From Candidatus Latescibacterota bacterium (lineage in GTDB: Bacteria; Latescibacterota; UBA2968; UBA8231): 64,000 nucleotides of DNA. The position numbers and the translations under genes were made by a program. The notes under the pieces were generated by a model. It saw only the letters and a program-made list of their open reading frames with translations, had not been told where the DNA came from and made no database searches. The DNA lies in NCBI GenBank assembly GCA_965217585.1, contig OZ244561.1, forward strand, positions 416,001-480,000. The letters run 5' to 3'. Positions 401-34,956 of this stretch are shown here, piece after piece. Position 1 is the first letter of the stretch. Each line of letters begins with the position of its first letter.

Positions 401-2377
401 ATGTCGAAACAAGCCAAGCAAACTGCCAGCGACGAACTAGTGCGGATCGCGGCCGACATTCCCTTCATATCGCCGCCCCAGTGGGCCATTCTCGAGCGCA
501 GCCTCATCGACCTAATGAACCGAGCCATCGAACCCGTGCTGGCCCGCTACGTACACGGCGACGGCTCGACCATGTGGCCGCCGACCGACGAGATGACCAA
601 CTGGGACGGGTTGGACGACGCGTACGAGAGCTTCCACAACTGGCCCCTATTCTACCTGCTCGGCGGCGACGACCGCCTGCTCGAAGTGTCGAACCGGGAA
701 TTCAACGCCATCACGCTGCAATTCACCCGCTACCAATCCGGCCACGGCCATCCCATGGTCATCAAGGAGTACGAACAGGGCTACGACTGGATGCACCAGG
801 GCGAGGGGTACGTATTCTTTTATCTGTTGTGCATGGCCGACCCGACCAATACCACCAACCGCCGCCGAGCGCGGCGCTTCGCCGGATTCTATCTGAACGA
901 GGATCCAGAGGCGCTCAACTACGACGAGCAGCACAAGATCATCAAATCCCCGCACAACGGCAGCAAAGGTCCAGCACAGCGCAACTTCGAGCGCTACTAC
1001 ACCAAGTACCGCTATGAAGAATGGCAGAAGTGGCCCCTGCCCTTTTACGACGTGCCCGGCTGCCAAACGGTCGAAGACCTGCGGGATCCGGAGATCGAGG
1101 ATCGGATGGGTCAGGCGGTGATAGAGCGCTTCGCTCGCGGCGACTGCGCCGCCAATCTGGCGGCCACCAGCATGGTCACCAACGCGTACCTATTCACCGG
1201 GGACGTCAAATGCAAACAATGGGTGGAGGAGTACGTCGGCGCTTGGATGGAACGACTAGCGGCCAACAACGGCATTCTGCCGGACAACGTGGGGCTGTCG
1301 GGCGAGGTTGGGGAGTACTTGGGCGGCCGGTGGTACGGCGGGTACTACGGCTGGACCTGGCCCCACGGCTGGCACACCATGGGCGATGCTGTGCTCAGTG
1401 GTGCCGAGAACGCCATGCTGGTATCCGGCGATCTGCAGTATCTAGAACTCGCCCGTTCGCAGATCGACGTGATGATGGAAAACGGCGAAATCCGCAACGG
1501 CACCCTGTACGTGCCCCACTTCCACCACGACAAGGGCTGGGACGGGTATAGTCCCATGCAGACCCGCTTTATGGCGCACTTGTGGAGCATTTCGCTGGAT
1601 CCGGCGGATATGGAGCGCATCGACCAACAACGCGACCGCCAAGCCCGGGACTGGGAAGCGGTGCAGGTCCTCTCGCCCAAGGATCGCGGCGGTCACGAAG
1701 CCCCCTGGCTGGCGTACCTACGCGGCGAGTTCCCCGACTATCCCGAGGAGATTCTGCGCTATAACCACGCCCAAGTGTACCAGCGGCTGGCGTACATGGC
1801 GCACGACGGGCAGGACCCCGCCACGTACGGCGATCACTACCTGCAGGTGCGCAACCCGATCACGACCGAAGGCCTAGTGCAACTGACCATGGGCGGGCCG
1901 CTCTTCAACTTCAACGGTGGGCTGCTGCTGGTGCGGCTGCGCTATTTCGACTGGCAGCGCCGGCGGCCGGGGTTGCCCCGAGACGTGGCCGCGTTGGTGG
2001 AAAAGCTGGCACCCGAGAGCGCGGTTTTGCGGCTAGTCAACCTCAGCGCCGTGGAGGAACGGGAACTGGTCGTCCAGGCCGGCGCTTTTGGCGAGCACCA
2101 GTTTACCACGGCGCGTTTCCAGACCCTAGCGGCTGGCCGGAGTCACGATGTGTTCAGCAGCGCCGAGTGGTTGGACGAGGACGCGTACAGGACGGCGATG
2201 GCCCGTGAAGTCGAGGAGTGCGAAGTGGCCATCAACGCTCCCTGCTTCCGGGTCGCGCTCCGTCCAAGCTCCGAGATAAGACTGGAGCTGGGGATGAAGC
2301 GCTTTGTCAACACCCCCTCGTACAAGCTGCCTTGGGCTGCCACCGAGGAGCGGCCCGGTCCCAGCGACAAAAGCTAG
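401..2377 (+). CDS. Hypothetical protein, 658 aa, aromatic-rich, possibly a helical-barrel glycosidase/lyase-like fold
   Basis: Long ORF with GC-rich codon usage and AGGGA upstream; motifs DDAYESFHNWPLFY, YDWMHQGEG, GRWYGGYYGWTWPHG; function not assignable. Confidence 0.7.
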   Translation: MSKQAKQTASDELVRIAADIPFISPPQWAILERSLIDLMNRAIEPVLARYVHGDGSTMWPPTDEMTNWDGLDDAYESFHNWPLFYLLGGDDRLLEVSNREFNAITLQFTRYQSGHGHPMVIKEYEQGYDWMHQGEGYVFFYLLCMADPTNTTNRRRARRFAGFYLNEDPEALNYDEQHKIIKSPHNGSKGPAQRNFERYYTKYRYEEWQKWPLPFYDVPGCQTVEDLRDPEIEDRMGQAVIERFARGDCAANLAATSMVTNAYLFTGDVKCKQWVEEYVGAWMERLAANNGILPDNVGLSGEVGEYLGGRWYGGYYGWTWPHGWHTMGDAVLSGAENAMLVSGDLQYLELARSQIDVMMENGEIRNGTLYVPHFHHDKGWDGYSPMQTRFMAHLWSISLDPADMERIDQQRDRQARDWEAVQVLSPKDRGGHEAPWLAYLRGEFPDYPEEILRYNHAQVYQRLAYMAHDGQDPATYGDHYLQVRNPITTEGLVQLTMGGPLFNFNGGLLLVRLRYFDWQRRRPGLPRDVAALVEKLAPESAVLRLVNLSAVEERELVVQAGAFGEHQFTTARFQTLAAGRSHDVFSSAEWLDEDAYRTAMAREVEECEVAINAPCFRVALRPSSEIRLELGMKRFVNTPSYKLPWAATEERPGPSDKS

Positions 2378-2464
2378 GACTTAGTGGTCTTTCAATTAAG
2401 TTTATTGCCTGAATCCACTGGATTCCCGCTTTCGCGGGAGTGACGTCATTTGTATGTTGCAAAA

Positions 2465-2645
2465 GCCTTTCAGATTGGCCAATCTGAAAGGCCTGCGTGA
2501 GGGGCGCGTCGTCCGTCATTGGGTGAGCAGGCACGACAGTGCCCACGGCACCGTGCGGGAGTAAGACACCCCTCACGCTAGGTTGTCGCTCCGAACAGAT
2601 ACAGGGGCCTTGGGCCCGTATTACAAGTGTGGAGGACAGCACCCA
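2465..2645 (+). ncRNA. Putative IS110 bridge RNA (ends approximate)
   Basis: 5' hairpin 2465-2492; target-binding loop closed by 2495-2504/2569-2578 with guides TCCGTCATT and GCGGGA; donor-binding loop closed by 2582-2592/2631-2640 with guides ACAGATAC and TACAAGT. Confidence 0.8.
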
Positions 2646-2667
2646 TTATAACAGGGAGGCTACCAGC

Positions 2668-3609
2668 ATGAAAGTCGTTGCCGGTATAGACGTAGGAAAA
2701 AGCAGTCTGGACGTGTCGGTGTCGGCGGGTCCGGTGCGTCGATTCGACAACGCCCCCGCGGGCCTTTCGGCCCTGGTGGGCTGGTTGGAGCGCGAGGGGG
2801 CGACCCACGTGGTGTGTGAATCGACCGGGGGCTATGAGCGGGAAGTGGTGCGACGGTTGCGGAGCACGGCATGGTCGGTGCACATAGCGCACCCCAACCG
2901 AGTGCGCCACTTCGCGCGGGCGGCTGGCCGCCAAGCCAAGACCGACGCGCTGGACGCGCAGATGCTGTCGCGGTATGGGCAGGTATTCGAGGTGCCTAGC
3001 TCGGTGGCGGCGGCGGCGGACAGTGAGGTCCTGCAAGACCTGCTGCGCCGACGCAAGCAGTTGGTGGACCAGCGCGTGCAGGAGCGCCATCGGCTGGACC
3101 AAGGACGGACCGAAGCCGCCCGCACCTCTACCCAGCGGCACCTCCAGTGGCTGGATGAAGAGATCGGACGGTTGGAAGAGGAATACCGCAAGGCGTTGGA
3201 AAACAGCGGCGAGTTGTCCGAGTCCGCGGCCCTGTACCGGAGTGTGCCGGGCGTGGGCGAGCTGACCGCGGCCACGCTGGTAGTGTATCTGCCGGAGTTG
3301 GGGCAGTACCGTGGAAAGGAGTTGACCTCGCTGGTGGGACTGGCCCCGTGGTCCAACGACAGTGGGCGCCAGCAGGGGTATCGCTCGATCCGGGGCGGAC
3401 GGGGAACCGTGCGTAGGGTGTTGTACCTGGCCGCCTTGTCGGCGATACGCTACAACGACGACCTGAGCCGTTTCTATCAGGGACTGCGCCAGCGGGGCAA
3501 GACGGGCAAGGTGGCGGTGGTGGCGGTGATGCGCAAGCTGCTGCTGTTGCTGAACGCCATTGCCCATCGAGGAACGCCCTGGGTGGAACACCAGGCCCCA
3601 GCAGGGTAG
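2668..3609 (+). CDS. IS110-family transposase/bridge recombinase (DEDD RuvC-like domain + Transposase_20)
   Basis: GIDVGK, VCESTG, KTDALDA (D-E-D-D), SVPGVG, GLAPWSNDSG (catalytic Ser), VAVMRKLL; RBS GGGAGG before ATG 2668. Confidence 0.95.
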   Translation: MKVVAGIDVGKSSLDVSVSAGPVRRFDNAPAGLSALVGWLEREGATHVVCESTGGYEREVVRRLRSTAWSVHIAHPNRVRHFARAAGRQAKTDALDAQMLSRYGQVFEVPSSVAAAADSEVLQDLLRRRKQLVDQRVQERHRLDQGRTEAARTSTQRHLQWLDEEIGRLEEEYRKALENSGELSESAALYRSVPGVGELTAATLVVYLPELGQYRGKELTSLVGLAPWSNDSGRQQGYRSIRGGRGTVRRVLYLAALSAIRYNDDLSRFYQGLRQRGKTGKVAVVAVMRKLLLLLNAIAHRGTPWVEHQAPAG

Positions 3610-3750
3610 AAAAGGGCTGGACGCAGAACACAGATACTCCCGCGAAAGCGGGAATCCAGACTAAAAGACCAAAATAAAAATGGTAACTAACTTTTTTGAA
3701 ACACCACTTAGTTTCCCACCTGAATGCTGTAAACAGACGGAGCCAGACGC

Positions 3751-5715
3751 ATGCCCAAGAATCTGTTGCCCAATGCGAGTTTCGAACTGGATTTCGGCGA
3801 GGGATTGTGCACCAACTGGGGGGATTTGCAAAACGAATTGACCCTGCCGCTCTCCCTCACGGATCAGCAGGAGCGCACGCCGCCCCGCATCGAGGCCCGC
3901 GACGATGCCGTGGACGGCGAACACGCCGCCCGCCTAGCGCTCGACCCAACAGCGGACAGCGGCGCGGTCGGCCACCTCACCTCGCCGGTCGTAGCGGTCA
4001 AGCCGGGACAGGTCTATACCCTGTCGGTGTACGCCCGCAGCGACGACCCTTCAGCCCAGCTCGAACTGGGCCTGTGGACGCGGCCGCTGGACTTTCGGCA
4101 GAAGCCGAGTAGGGTCAGCCAACCCCGGCAATTGTCCGCGGACTGGGCCCAGTATCAATTCACTCTAGTCACCGACGAGTTGGAAGACCGGGCCGTAGCG
4201 GACCTGACCGTGCGCGCCGACCAAGCCGGCGCGGCCCACTTCGACGCCGTCCAACTGGAGGAAGGTCCACGGGCCACCGAGTTCGAGACGCGCTGGCCCG
4301 TGGAAGTGGCCCTGCGTAGCAGGCGGAAAAATATCCTGCATCTCGCTGGCGAACCTTTCGAACTATCCCTCACCGCGTACAATAGCACGGACGAGCCAGT
4401 AGAAAAACACGTGGAGATGACCATTGCCAGCGTGCCCGAGGGCGTGCAGGTATTCGAACACGCCGTGTCCGAGCCGGTTCCGCCGGGCCGGCGGGAAGGC
4501 CCACTGCGCCTAAACTTTTCCTTGGTGGGTGCCTTTCGCGCCCGGGTCTACGACCACGGCGGCCGACTGACCTCGGTCGACGACCACCTGTTCAGCGTCC
4601 ATCCGGTGATCGAACGGGACTTTCAGGGCATTCTCTACTCCCGTCATGGCGAGCTGCAAAAGCCGCTGCCGGCCGAGCGCGTCTGGCTGCCCTGGACCAA
4701 CGAGAAGAGCTGGTACGCCGACCCGCCCGCCGGGCTTACCCTCACCGACGCCGGCACCATCTACGTGGCCGCCAGCGACGGCACCAGCCTATTGCATACC
4801 CGCGACGGCGGCCGCACTTGGGACGTCCTCGAGGTGGAGTGCCCGGTCCTGACCGTCTTGCGCGACGGCGCGCTGGTGGGCCAGACCGTCGAAGACGGCG
4901 ATGTGGTGCTCTATCGCTCGACGGACGAGGGCCGCACTTTTCAGCCGCTCAGCCGCCTAGCCGGGCTCGGGGCCGTGCAGGTGGGTCCCATAACCGAATT
5001 GGCGGACGGCGCGCTGATCTGGCCGATCGGCCGGGAAGCTCCCGAAGGCCACGGTCCCTCTATTGTGTACGCTTATCGCTCTGCCGACGAGGGTGCCACT
5101 TGGTCGGAGGGGGGCCCTATCTGTCCCGGCGGCGAACCGCAGATCGCCGAACTGTCGTCCGGTCGCCTGTTGGCGGCCGTGCGCAACAACCCTTCGCTCC
5201 ATGCCGACGACTGGCGGCGCGCCTTTGCCAACGAGATGCCCTGGCACCTGTGGATGCGCGCCTTTGGCTTTACCAACGTCACTTCCTACACCAAGCGGAT
5301 CATGTTGGCCGACTCCGACGACCGCGGTCTGACCTGGAACAATGTGCGGCCGGGCACCTTTCTCCTCGATGAAATGCACGGCCAAGTCCTGCCCCTGCCC
5401 GACGACCGCGTCGTCCTGCTCTACACCCATCGCGGTCCCTGGCCGCGCGGCGGCGAGCGAGCCAAGGTCAGCCGCGATCAGGGCCAAACCTGGGCTCAAG
5501 AACTCTATTACCTGAATGCGACCCCGGCCTATCCGGGGTATTCGGCCAGTTGCGTGCTGCCGCCCGACCTAGCCGATGGAGAACCTAACATGGTCCTCAG
5601 CGTAGTCGGCGAACGATCCGAGCGGATATGGGGCCATCCCGGTACCCAGCCGACCGCGGAGGGCATTGAAATGGCCCCGCGCATGCAGGCCATTCGCTGG
5701 CGTCCCCTGCGGTGA
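3751..5715 (+). CDS. Sialidase-family (BNR/Asp-box) protein with an N-terminal carbohydrate-binding-like module
   Basis: N-terminal NLLPNASFE...FDAVQLEEG CBM-like pattern; five Asp-boxes (TRDGGRTW, STDEGRTF, SADEGATW, SDDRGLTW, SRDQGQTW). Confidence 0.75.
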   Translation: MPKNLLPNASFELDFGEGLCTNWGDLQNELTLPLSLTDQQERTPPRIEARDDAVDGEHAARLALDPTADSGAVGHLTSPVVAVKPGQVYTLSVYARSDDPSAQLELGLWTRPLDFRQKPSRVSQPRQLSADWAQYQFTLVTDELEDRAVADLTVRADQAGAAHFDAVQLEEGPRATEFETRWPVEVALRSRRKNILHLAGEPFELSLTAYNSTDEPVEKHVEMTIASVPEGVQVFEHAVSEPVPPGRREGPLRLNFSLVGAFRARVYDHGGRLTSVDDHLFSVHPVIERDFQGILYSRHGELQKPLPAERVWLPWTNEKSWYADPPAGLTLTDAGTIYVAASDGTSLLHTRDGGRTWDVLEVECPVLTVLRDGALVGQTVEDGDVVLYRSTDEGRTFQPLSRLAGLGAVQVGPITELADGALIWPIGREAPEGHGPSIVYAYRSADEGATWSEGGPICPGGEPQIAELSSGRLLAAVRNNPSLHADDWRRAFANEMPWHLWMRAFGFTNVTSYTKRIMLADSDDRGLTWNNVRPGTFLLDEMHGQVLPLPDDRVVLLYTHRGPWPRGGERAKVSRDQGQTWAQELYYLNATPAYPGYSASCVLPPDLADGEPNMVLSVVGERSERIWGHPGTQPTAEGIEMAPRMQAIRWRPLR

Positions 5716-22906: not shown

Positions 22907-23914
22907 TCAGACATTCCACACCCGCTCGAAGAGACTCATCCAGTTTCCGCCCAACAGCTTGGTGATCTCCTCGGCCCTGTACCCGCGATTGGCGAGCGCC
23001 TCCGCCAGGTTGGGGAACTCCGCCGGGCTGTCGATCCCCTTTGGTTGAAAACTCAGCTCCGTGTACGGCACCGACCCATCGGCAAAGGTCGAGGGAAATT
23101 TCGTGCCCTGCTGCGATACGATGTAATGCCAGAATTCGAGCGGCTGATCGTGGGTGGAATCAGTGCCGATGGCCACGTGATCGAGACCGATCCGCTCCAC
23201 CATGTCGTCGATGGCATCGACGAAATCCTCGACCGTCGAATCGAATCCCTTGGGAAGAAAGTTGGCAAAGGACGTGGCACCCACGACGCCCCCCTTTTCG
23301 GCGAGGAGCTTGAGCGCCTCTTCTTCCTTGTTGCGCGGATGGCCGCAAAAACTGCGGGCATTGGCATGGGTGATCGCAACCGGCTGCTCGGACATCTCAA
23401 TGGCATCCATCGTCGTCTTCGGACCAACGTGCGACAAGTCGATGACAATGCCGAGCCGGTTCATCTCGCGCACCGCATCGACGCCGAAGTTGCTCAGGCC
23501 ACAATCGTTCCGCTCCCAACAGCCGCTGCCCAGCAGATTGGTCTCGTGATAAGTCAGTTGAATCACCCGCACCCCGAGGGCGAGGAAAAGCCCCAGGCGA
23601 TCCAATTCGTTCTCGATGGGCGAGGCGTTCTGAAAACTGAGGATGATCCCGGTCTTGCCGAGCGCTTTGGCGGCGTGAATGTCGGCCGTCTCCTTCACCT
23701 GCACGATGTCGTGGCGCTCGCGAAAACGCCGCATCCACGCCGCCAGGTGCGCCATGGTCTGCACAAAATTTTCCCACGTTGCCACCGTGGCGTTGATAGC
23801 GGTGATATTGCCGGCTCGCAAACGCTCGAACACCGCGTCGCTCTCCCAGTTGCTGACGTTCAGACCATCTATGACAATCGCCTCGTCGTAGACCTTCCTC
23901 GCTTCACTCGACAT
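22907..23914 (-). CDS. Membrane dipeptidase (peptidase M19 family)
   Basis: LGVRVIQLTY, GLSNFG..VREMNRLGIVIDLSH, THAN, HPRNK, DHVAIGTD, KLLGGNW. Confidence 0.9.
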   Translation of the reverse strand: MSSEARKVYDEAIVIDGLNVSNWESDAVFERLRAGNITAINATVATWENFVQTMAHLAAWMRRFRERHDIVQVKETADIHAAKALGKTGIILSFQNASPIENELDRLGLFLALGVRVIQLTYHETNLLGSGCWERNDCGLSNFGVDAVREMNRLGIVIDLSHVGPKTTMDAIEMSEQPVAITHANARSFCGHPRNKEEEALKLLAEKGGVVGATSFANFLPKGFDSTVEDFVDAIDDMVERIGLDHVAIGTDSTHDQPLEFWHYIVSQQGTKFPSTFADGSVPYTELSFQPKGIDSPAEFPNLAEALANRGYRAEEITKLLGGNWMSLFERVWNV

Positions 23915-34757: not shown

Positions 34758-34796
34758 AATCGAAAACAGGGAAGAATTTTTGTTTTTAAACGCTCA

Positions 34797-34879
34797 GTGG
34801 TCTTTCAATTAAGTTTATTGCCTGAATCCAGACTAAAAGACCAAAATAAAAATGGCAACTAACTTTTTTGAAACACCAC
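34797..34879. mobile_element. 83-bp MITE (short, empty copy)
   Basis: Same ends as 2384-3707; TCA duplicated at 34794-34796 and 34880-34882; absent from the paralogous spacers near 30262 and 32528, which read CGCTGAGCT. Confidence 0.9.
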
Positions 34880-34956
34880 TCAGCTCGGGTGTATATTTAA
34901 TCTTCGCAACCTTTGAACTGCACGCTTGTATTGGTTAATCAACCAAGGAGGAAGTT

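Follow-up and report, generated by a model that had tools for sequence, protein, structure and literature searches.

The 64-kb window analysed here (C1:416001-480000, where C1 is contig OZ244561.1) comes from the 7.32-Mb genome, a single contig with 59.5% G+C, of a Candidatus Latescibacterota bacterium. It carries at 2451-3638 what is almost certainly a complete insertion sequence (IS) of the IS110 group with a readable bridge RNA, working like IS621. A first-pass annotation, made from the letters of the window, had proposed an RNA-programmed IS110 recombinase element at this place, and the domains, catalytic residues, precise insertion, fold, guides and guide-target covariation presented below all point to such an element. 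The boundaries, copies, empty sites, protein family, catalytic residues, fold and its covariation, guide matches and the covariation of guide with insertion site were read directly from the DNA. The coordinates of the features are collected in Table 1.

The insert lies on the plus strand between two unrelated genes (open reading frames 401-2377 and 3751-5715). It is made up of a non-coding left end of 217 nt (2451-2667), the recombinase gene (2668-3609) and a right end of 29 nt (3610-3638), the longer left end being characteristic of the IS110 group. A second copy, also of 1188 bp and 100% identical, is located at C1:5835843-5837030. There are exactly two copies in the genome, 5.4 Mb apart and in different repeat units, and the same two are the only matches in the genome to the Pfam family PF01548 and to the RNA model R1 described below. 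Outside the element the two loci are alike over no more than 7 nt on the left (CGTCATT) and 10 nt on the right (CCCGCGAAAG); beyond that their sequences diverge.

Both repeat units are also found uninterrupted. That of copy 1 has paralogues at C1:862557-862690 and 1979834-1979975, in the first of which the left and right flanks abut exactly at C1:862622/862623, and that of copy 2 has paralogues at C1:1716793-1717008, 1359443-1359650 and 1109061-1109267. The empty sites read ...CGTCA-TT-CCCGC... (for the left target in the window, ...GACGTCA-TT-CCCGC). This makes the insertion a precise one with TT as the target core, the CT at 3637-3638 being the element's own. The second base of the core dinucleotide, T, is common to target and donor, while the first is T in the target and C in the donor. 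Long terminal inverted repeats and a target duplication are both lacking, again as in the IS110 group. The boundaries 2451 and 3638 are thus proven by flank divergence and empty paralogues. Paralogous sites were used because no orthologous empty site was found in the relatives; in the same-genus genomes the neighbouring gene is only ~74% identical, and the intergenic region is not conserved. The first-pass annotation had predicted that removal of 2451-3638 would leave the target GACGTCA-TT-CCCGC and that the circle would carry the donor ACAGATA-CT-TGTAT. The second copy and the empty paralogues agree with both, and copy 2, to which its suggested comparison of flanks applies, has the same ends at CGTCATT / CCCGCGAAAG. 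The 14-bp donor is bracketed exactly by a 3-bp inverted repeat, AAC (3627-3629) and GTT (2456-2458); subterminal repeats of 2-3 bp around the donor are described for the IS110 group (PMC11208160).

The recombinase has the domain arrangement of the group, an N-terminal DEDD (RuvC-like) domain and a C-terminal Tnp domain with the catalytic serine. The Pfam matches are PF01548 DEDD_Tnp_IS110 (1.2e-21) and PF02371 Transposase_20 (1.1e-15), and NCBIfam NF033542 ('IS110 family RNA-guided transposase') is matched with 202 bits against a cut-off of 140 bits. The best of the solved structures is the ISCro4 transposase (9t56, 4.5e-40), followed by IS621 (8wt6, 1.5e-35, phmmer), over residues 5-305. Residues D8, E51, D93, D96 and S232 stand opposite D13, E62, D104, D107 and S243 of the 8wt6 chain. 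The catalytic residues of IS621 are given as D11, E60, D102, D105 and S241 (PMC11208158). The 8wt6 chain appears to have two extra N-terminal residues, an offset deduced from the chain numbering, and with this offset the five aligned residues are those of the IS621 active site.

The minimum-free-energy fold of 2451-2668 has an energy of -95.8 kcal/mol (z = -4.2), and none of 200 shuffled sequences was as stable. It comprises a 5′ hairpin followed by two long hairpins, the first of which binds the target in the IS621 scheme and carries the inner hairpin GGCAC-GACA-GTGCC, while the second, donor-binding hairpin carries the inner hairpin GGGCC-TTG-GGCCC. Relatives of the protein were collected in one-genome-per-species contigs, giving 49 loci, and 12 left ends were aligned with a mean column identity of 75% (alignment A1). 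These are the window, the Latescibacterota loci L005, L006, L025, L027, L032, L036 and L039, L007 and L011 from Chloroflexota, L017 from Dehalococcoidia and L019 from Binatia. RNAalifold on A1 gives the same helices as the single-sequence fold. The 5′ hairpin and the two internal-loop hairpins of the first-pass annotation are thus recovered by both methods, and covariation in the 12 left ends agrees with them.

The consensus structure contains 43 pairs in seven helices, and 90.5% of its cells are standard pairs, compared with 83.3% in shuffles and 43-50% with slid partners; the contrast with the slid controls is inflated, because the structure is partly derived from the same sequences. In A1 17 of the 43 pairs change on both sides, a number reached by none of 500 shuffles. 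Such changes cluster in the 5′ stem-loop, with six of its 10 pairs, and in both stems of the target loop. The outer stem of the target loop (helix 3) has 95.8% of cells paired with four of eight pairs compensatory, and the inner hairpin of that loop (helix 4) has six compensatory pairs out of 10. The outer stem of the donor loop is paired in 97.9% of cells, with seven of its eight pairs invariant. The cyanobacterial loci L034 and L047, which also start with TGTATGTT, gave no alignment with this RNA and were dropped from A1 and from a second alignment, A2. A covariance model of the RNA (R1; 180 positions, 43 pairs) was built and run over 24 sources. A weak partial match to it on the minus strand of the window at 23689-23737 (11.2 bits, E 0.68, model positions 59-106) is most likely due to chance.

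The two loops contain four guides in the published order and strand sense of the IS621 bridge RNA, as the first-pass annotation had concluded, and all the hairpins, stems and guides that it quoted are present where it placed them. In IS621 the left target guide (LTG) and left donor guide (LDG) have the same sense as the left halves of their DNAs, and the core is part of all four pairings (PMC11208160). Here the last 7 nt of the LTG, TCCGTCATT, are equal to the left target (LT) plus core at both insertion sites, and the LDG, ACAGATAC, matches the donor at eight of nine positions. The right target guide (RTG) is GCGGGAG (2555-2561), complementary to CT-CCCGC. With the empty target TT-CCCGC it pairs at 7/7 positions, including one G.T pair. 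The shorter form proposed initially, GCGGGA (2555-2560), is present and is extended by one base; the RTG therefore reads core C-T whereas the LTG reads core T-T. The right donor guide (RDG), TACAAG (2622-2627), is complementary to CT-TGTA, and TAT upstream of it (2619-2621) could extend the pairing discontiguously if one U were skipped. In IS621 the LTG is 9 nt and the RTG 4 nt in length, with longer RTGs reported in other orthologues, and the RDG pairs discontiguously (PMC11208160).

In the RTG and RDG alike, the core-binding nucleotides are followed on the 3′ side by a dinucleotide described as a handshake guide, which, once the top strands have been exchanged, pairs with the other DNA at positions 6-7 (PMC11208158). 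Here both handshake guides pair 2/2 with positions 6-7 of the non-cognate DNA. TA (2562-2563) pairs with positions 6-7 (TA) of the left donor (LD), which makes GCGGGAGTA complementary to the right junction TACTCCCGC over all 9 nt; that is, 2555-2563 pairs with TA-CT-CCCGC at 9/9 positions in Watson-Crick fashion. TG (2628-2629) pairs with LT positions 6-7 (CA). When the RDG plus handshake (reverse complement CA-CT-TGTA) is set against the left junction CA-TT-TGTA, seven Watson-Crick pairs and one G.T pair are formed (8/8). The string TACAAGT (2622-2628), given in full as the donor guide by the first-pass annotation, does occur, but its final T is better grouped with the G that follows, the two forming the handshake guide for target positions 6-7. 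As to the likeness that it saw to the IS621 donor, at the positions named in the text of PMC11208158 C8, T9, T10 and T12 are equal, while A6 and T7 there stand against T6 and A7 here. That paper describes core T at position 9 as nearly invariant, the first core position as less conserved, and the RNA G facing position 8 as held by the protein. By these rules T in the target against C in the donor, with G retained in both RTG and RDG, is unsurprising.

The guide matches were compared with 20000 mononucleotide shuffles of the left end, with the first 14 nt excluded. Taken singly, the match lengths of 7, 6, 8 and 7 nt were attained by 482, 3380, 58 and 244 of the shuffles, respectively; no shuffle attained all four jointly.

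Table 1. Features of the IS110-group element and its insertion site (window coordinates)
Feature	Position	Strand	Remarks
Upstream dRS3-like hairpin of the host repeat unit, ATTCCCGC-TTTC-GCGGGAGT, outside the element	2422..2441	+	Unit recurs at C1:862557-862690 and 1979834-1979975
Left target: LT positions 1-7 GACGTCA (2442-2448) and target core TT (2449-2450)	2442..2450	+	Empty paralogous sites
IS110-group insertion sequence, 1188 bp	2451..3638	+	Two 100% identical copies; boundaries set by flank divergence and empty sites
Right donor (RD) TGTAT	2451..2455	+	TGTATGTT invariant in 12 aligned orthologues
-10 box TATGTT (putative junction promoter)	2453..2458	+	Contains subterminal inverted repeat half GTT, 2456-2458
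5′ stem-loop of bridge RNA	2465..2492	+	Folds; helix 1 has 6/10 pairs changed on both sides
Target-binding loop hairpin: outer stem 2495-2504 (GCGTGAGGGG) / 2569-2578 (CCCCTCACGC), inner stem-loop 2522-2552	2495..2578	+	
LTG TCCGTCATT, same sense as LT + core	2512..2520	+	7/9 positions identical to both insertion sites
RTG GCGGG 2555-2559, core-binding AG 2560-2561, handshake guide TA 2562-2563	2555..2563	+	
Donor-binding loop hairpin: outer stem 2582-2592 / 2631-2640 (one bulge), inner hairpin 2605-2617	2582..2640	+	Folds
LDG ACAGATAC = LD positions 1-7 + first core base	2595..2602	+	Identical to 3630-3637
RDG region: TACA 2622-2625, core-binding AG 2626-2627, handshake guide TG 2628-2629	2619..2629	+	
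Ribosome-binding site GGGAGG	2654..2659	+	8 nt 5′ of ATG
Recombinase gene, 313 aa	2668..3609	+	Catalytic D8, E51, D93, D96, S232
-35 box TGGACG (putative junction promoter)	3618..3623	+	17 nt from -10 box once ends are joined
Subterminal inverted repeat half AAC 3627-3629; LD ACAGATA 3630-3636; donor core CT 3637-3638	3627..3638	+	
Right target (RT) CCCGC 3639-3643, then remainder of dRS3-like hairpin CCCGCGAAAGCGGGAAT	3639..3655	+	

The relation of guide to site was followed through 28 insertions, comprising the two copies here and 26 of the 49 related loci, namely those whose two ends could both be located. L026, L027, L039 and L053 are truncated and stand outside this set; two of them, L027 and L039, do enter the RNA alignments. 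In the 19 further loci left out no end with ACAGATA was found, nor any TGTATG left end except in L034 and L047. ACAGATACT forms the final letters of the element in 28/28 insertions. The core at the right junction is CT in all 28, and that at the left junction is TT in 26, the exceptions being L017 (TC) and L036 (AT). The element's own LTG matches its own left flank at 6-9 of nine positions in 26 of the 28. Ten elements from Chloroflexota have the RTG GCCGG and are inserted at CCGGC (seven) or CCAGC (three, with one mismatch), while the other 18 have GCGGG and are inserted at CCCGC (17) or CTCGT (L036, with two G.T pairs).

The two LTG exceptions, L032 and L036 (4/9 each), both come from one metagenome-assembled genome (MAG), that of the same-genus genome G008. 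L032 has the LTG ..GTGGAT at a ..GTCATT site, and L036 has the LTG ..GTCATT at a ..GTGGAT site. A third element of G008 has GTGGAT at a GTGGAT site, and L062, a derivative of 343 bp with both ends and no recombinase gene, has GTGGTT at a GTGGATT site (the G008 loci are labelled L056 (=L036), L060, L061 (=L032) and L062). The LTG variants GTGGAT and GTGGTT are therefore found in the same genome as three insertions at GTGGAT(T) sites. For the swapped pairs the simplest explanation would be bridge RNAs acting in trans on identical donor ends, or else recombination between copies.

At E 1.4e-8 the R1 model also found a distant RNA upstream of the recombinases of L037 and L038 (37% protein identity, alphaproteobacterial MAG), two identical copies on one contig that define their own ends (1268-2439). 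Their LTG TTTGCAC stands against left flanks ..CTGCAC-CT and ..CCCAC-CT, their RTG is complementary to CT-CAGGAG and stands against right flanks CT-CAGGAC and CT-CGGGAT, and their LDG ATGGTTG equals the right end. The target-loop handshake CA of L037 is complementary to its LD positions 6-7 (TG); that of the donor loop pairs only 1/2. The LTG, RTG, LDG and target-loop handshake all differ from those of the window, yet match their own flanks and ends. Among the Chloroflexota copies, that of L008 is adjoined upstream by a truncated second left end (1180-1280), which stops right after its own LTG (..GTCCGTCATT). The LTG may itself have been a landing site or breakpoint here, because the guide has the same sequence as the target.

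In the empty site ATT (2448-2450) and 3639-3655 together rebuild the hairpin ATTCCCGCGAAAGCGGGAAT, which literally fits the pattern ATTCCC-N8-GGGAAT given for dRS3 repeats (PMC1797815), in keeping with the initial description of the target as a dRS3/REP-like repeat. The last 7 nt of the left target recur unchanged in the left flank of copy 2 and at 2514-2520 in the LTG. The genome has 38 strand-wise matches to ATTCCCGC-N3-5-GCGGGAAT, which correspond to ~19 hairpins since the pattern is palindromic, and the 12-mer CGTCATTCCCGC occurs 12 times compared with 1.55 expected from base composition. At the site of copy 2 the hairpin is split by a 27-nt insert, and the upstream hairpin is lacking. This 27-nt nested hairpin, within the loop of the dRS3-like hairpin, occurs as an exact string three times in the genome (L001 2699-2725, which is the right flank of copy 2, C1:2966009 and C1:4085927). 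Near-identical composites flank related elements in Dehalococcoidia (L017, L018, L030 and L040) and Latescibacterota (L036), so that repeat variants, besides the IS, are common to different phyla. A partial unit of the ~135-bp intergenic repeat that hosts copy 1 is found in the window at 34793-34880 (C1:450793-450880), with 97-98% identity over pieces of 38-57 bp and without an insertion.

The circular form of IS621 is reported to rebuild a sigma-70 promoter across the junction of right end and left end (RE-LE), and the RNA to cover ~177 bp of the left end (PMC11208160). When the ends of the present element are joined in silico, the -35 box TGGACG (3618-3623) is placed 17 nt from the -10 box TATGTT (2453-2458), giving 8/12 promoter matches. 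The same geometry is found in all 11 elements compared (the window and ten orthologues). A scan of the integrated locus for promoters gave no promoter-like sites, and a terminator-like site on its minus strand is simply the target hairpin. The bridge RNA probably starts at 2465, where the 5′ hairpin begins, ~7 nt downstream of the -10 box. A length of roughly 177-180 nt, from ~2465 to ~2642, is predicted, with the stem of the donor loop ending at 2640.

Among 23 public runs listed, 20 contain at least part of the stretch. RNA libraries make up five of the 20, and three of the five are labelled sponge metagenome. Contigs were mapped from X16 and X17 (RNA libraries labelled sponge metagenome) and from X1 and X5 (kind not on record), while X18-X20, with small shares, were left out. 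In these four runs the bin 2402-2452, which holds the repeat, has a summed contig depth of 3757-56012 compared with zero to a few hundred over the element, and so the host repeat is very abundant in those communities. No circle junction was seen in the contigs of the four runs. In three contigs of X1 there are joints that skip 1188 bases (2449 to 3638); these are most simply uninterrupted copies of the repeat and were rejected as excision products. Parts of the element that are uncovered in X16 and X17 are uninformative, as the data are contigs.

The transcription, RNA ends, circle and strand-exchange chemistry of the following scheme are modelled on IS621. The 313-aa DEDD/serine recombinase would excise the element, or copy it, into a circle. 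The joined right and left ends would create the sigma-70 promoter, from which the bridge RNA of ~177-180 nt would be transcribed. The first internal loop would bind the target CGTCA-TT-CCCGC, with the LTG on the bottom strand and the RTG on the top strand, and the second would bind the circle junction ACAGATA-CT-TGTAT. The top strands would be cut after the core T and then exchanged, after which the two handshake dinucleotides would pair with the incoming strands. The target in this scheme is the left arm of the dRS3-like hairpin in short intergenic repeat units.

Several observations weigh against this interpretation. Positions 1-2 of the LTG match neither insertion site, the ninth position of the LDG is A compared with T in the donor, and the RTG and RDG read core C while the target core is T (a G.T pair). 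The covariation analysis is silent on the outer stem of the donor loop, neither for nor against it, because the stem is invariant. A search of 2300-3800 against Rfam 15 at E up to 10 matched no bridge-RNA family; the hits obtained, DUF805 RNA, FtrB and mir-1181 (E 3.5-8.1), are unrelated families at chance level. Contigs from the RNA libraries cover parts of the gene and, in X17, also 2465-2523 and 2494-2699 with 0-4 differences, but contigs cannot show transcription, its start or its strand, and carry-over of DNA is possible. Lastly, the -35 box TGGACG (8/12), carried by both genomic copies, compares with TTGACx in 10/10 orthologues (9-10/12). There are also only two copies of the element while 12 further CGTCATTCCCGC sites in the genome stay unoccupied, from which it follows that activity may be low.

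The last two observations could mean that the copy is inactive or barely so, with guides and gene intact but expression of the bridge RNA from the junction promoter crippled, and no more movement. We regard this as unlikely, though it is the alternative with the most in its favour. That two copies at unrelated loci are 100% identical along their 1188 bp implies at least one recent transposition, either with this promoter or after the change arose, and the reading frame and the five catalytic residues are intact. The terms intact and programmable, as applied to this element, are predictions from the DNA.

The target might alternatively be chosen mainly through recognition by the protein of the hairpin structure of the repeat, with the RNA matches secondary. 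Most of the tabulated right flanks begin a hairpin, CCCGC-N4-GCGGG or CCGGC-N4-GCCGG, and for ISPpu10 a stem-loop in the target is reported in a preprint to contribute specificity (10.64898/2026.03.19.712850). But at copy 2 the hairpin is split by the 27-nt insert and the upstream hairpin is absent, and some sites, e.g. L013 and L023, have no hairpin. Furthermore, RTG and RT vary in step in Chloroflexota, as do LTG and LT in a same-genus genome, and we therefore consider choice mainly by hairpin structure improbable, a little more so than an inactive copy. Segmental duplication as the source of the two copies, or guide-like matches arising by chance, has nothing more than the small copy number to recommend it and is refuted by flanks that agree over only 7 and 10 nt, by the empty paralogues that each site has of its own, by the absence of the four joint matches from all 20000 shuffles and by the same layout in 12 orthologues, leaving it a negligible probability.

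An IS110-group element guided by a bridge RNA thus remains by far the best interpretation, and it resembles IS621 of E. coli closely in the respects described in PMC11208160 and PMC11208158. The proteins are homologous with five catalytic residues aligned, and the long left end has a 5′ stem-loop, a target-binding loop and a donor-binding loop with the same guide order and strand sense. The option of a discontiguous RDG, the handshake dinucleotides 3′ of the core-binding AG and the core T at position 9 are shared. So too are a promoter re-formed across the RE-LE junction, an RNA of ~177 nt (predicted here) and targets in palindromic intergenic repeats. It differs in that the target core is TT and the donor core CT, so that the G of the RTG and RDG would wobble with T before exchange. 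The RTG has 7 nt compared with 4 nt, a dRS3-like hairpin provides the different target CGTCA-TT-CCCGC, the host belongs to Latescibacterota, and the -35 box is weaker.

The ISCro4 transposase (PDB 9t56), the best match among solved structures (E 4.5e-40, residues 5-305), was compared by protein alone. ISPpu10 and ISPpu9 of Pseudomonas putida are likewise IS110 elements aimed at one conserved intergenic palindromic repeat, REP. As ISPpu10 is described, its stem-loop is a 5′ extension of the target, whereas here the cut hairpin lies on the 3′ side and is interrupted at one of two sites. The neisserial dRS3 repeats, which are sites of filamentous prophages integrating by a phage transposase, share with the present target the pattern ATTCCC-N8-GGGAAT fitted by ATTCCCGCGAAAGCGGGAAT (PMC1797815). 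They belong to another phylum, and the resemblance, judged on the published pattern alone, may be purely formal.

Systems of this kind have been known since 2024. Bridge RNAs have been predicted for 85.7% of IS110-group elements (PMC11208160), and covariation has been reported across 5,511 RNA-target pairs (PMC11208158). The element adds to a known kind and is not a new mechanism. NCBIfam already has a name for the protein, publications describe the RNA layout, the handshake guides, the junction promoter and the targeting of repeats, and this orthologue may already be among the thousands of IS110 elements surveyed. For annotation, the identity, ends and repeat location of the 1.2-kb insert are settled. 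It adds a compact (313-aa) orthologue from a little-studied phylum in which all guides, including the handshake guides, are directly readable. Close relatives provide natural cases of re-targeting, and the T/C mismatch of the core is likewise natural. Of modest extra interest are the donor and target conserved in three phylum-level groups, the guide variants of G008, the fixed T/C asymmetry and the weakened -35 box. TT at the left junction (26/28) with CT at the right (28/28) is what would be expected were the product determined by the top strand, a question discussed in two recent preprints (10.1101/2025.10.25.684509 and 10.64898/2026.08.31.748434).

Among 30 relatives the full-length element was found in two of 18 same-genus genomes and none of 12 same-class genomes. 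The G014 copy has 85% identity and is the same locus as L005, and G008 has three near-full copies, among them L036, together with pieces (69-72%). Unlike the element, the short host repeats recur in many of the 30 relatives. Both IS and repeat occur in runs labelled sponge metagenome. As a tentative proposal, which we think somewhat less probable than its converse, these elements may constitute one conserved lineage of bridge-RNA IS that has spread to three or more phylum-level groups (Latescibacterota, Chloroflexota with Dehalococcoidia, and Binatia), with the same donor ends throughout and the same target, a dRS3-like hairpin repeat that would itself be present in all these genomes. On this reading the IS may move with its landing pad, or the two may persist side by side, in one community, co-resident elements with differing guides appear to act in trans, and the fixed T/C core would mark natural products with top-strand sequence at both junctions.

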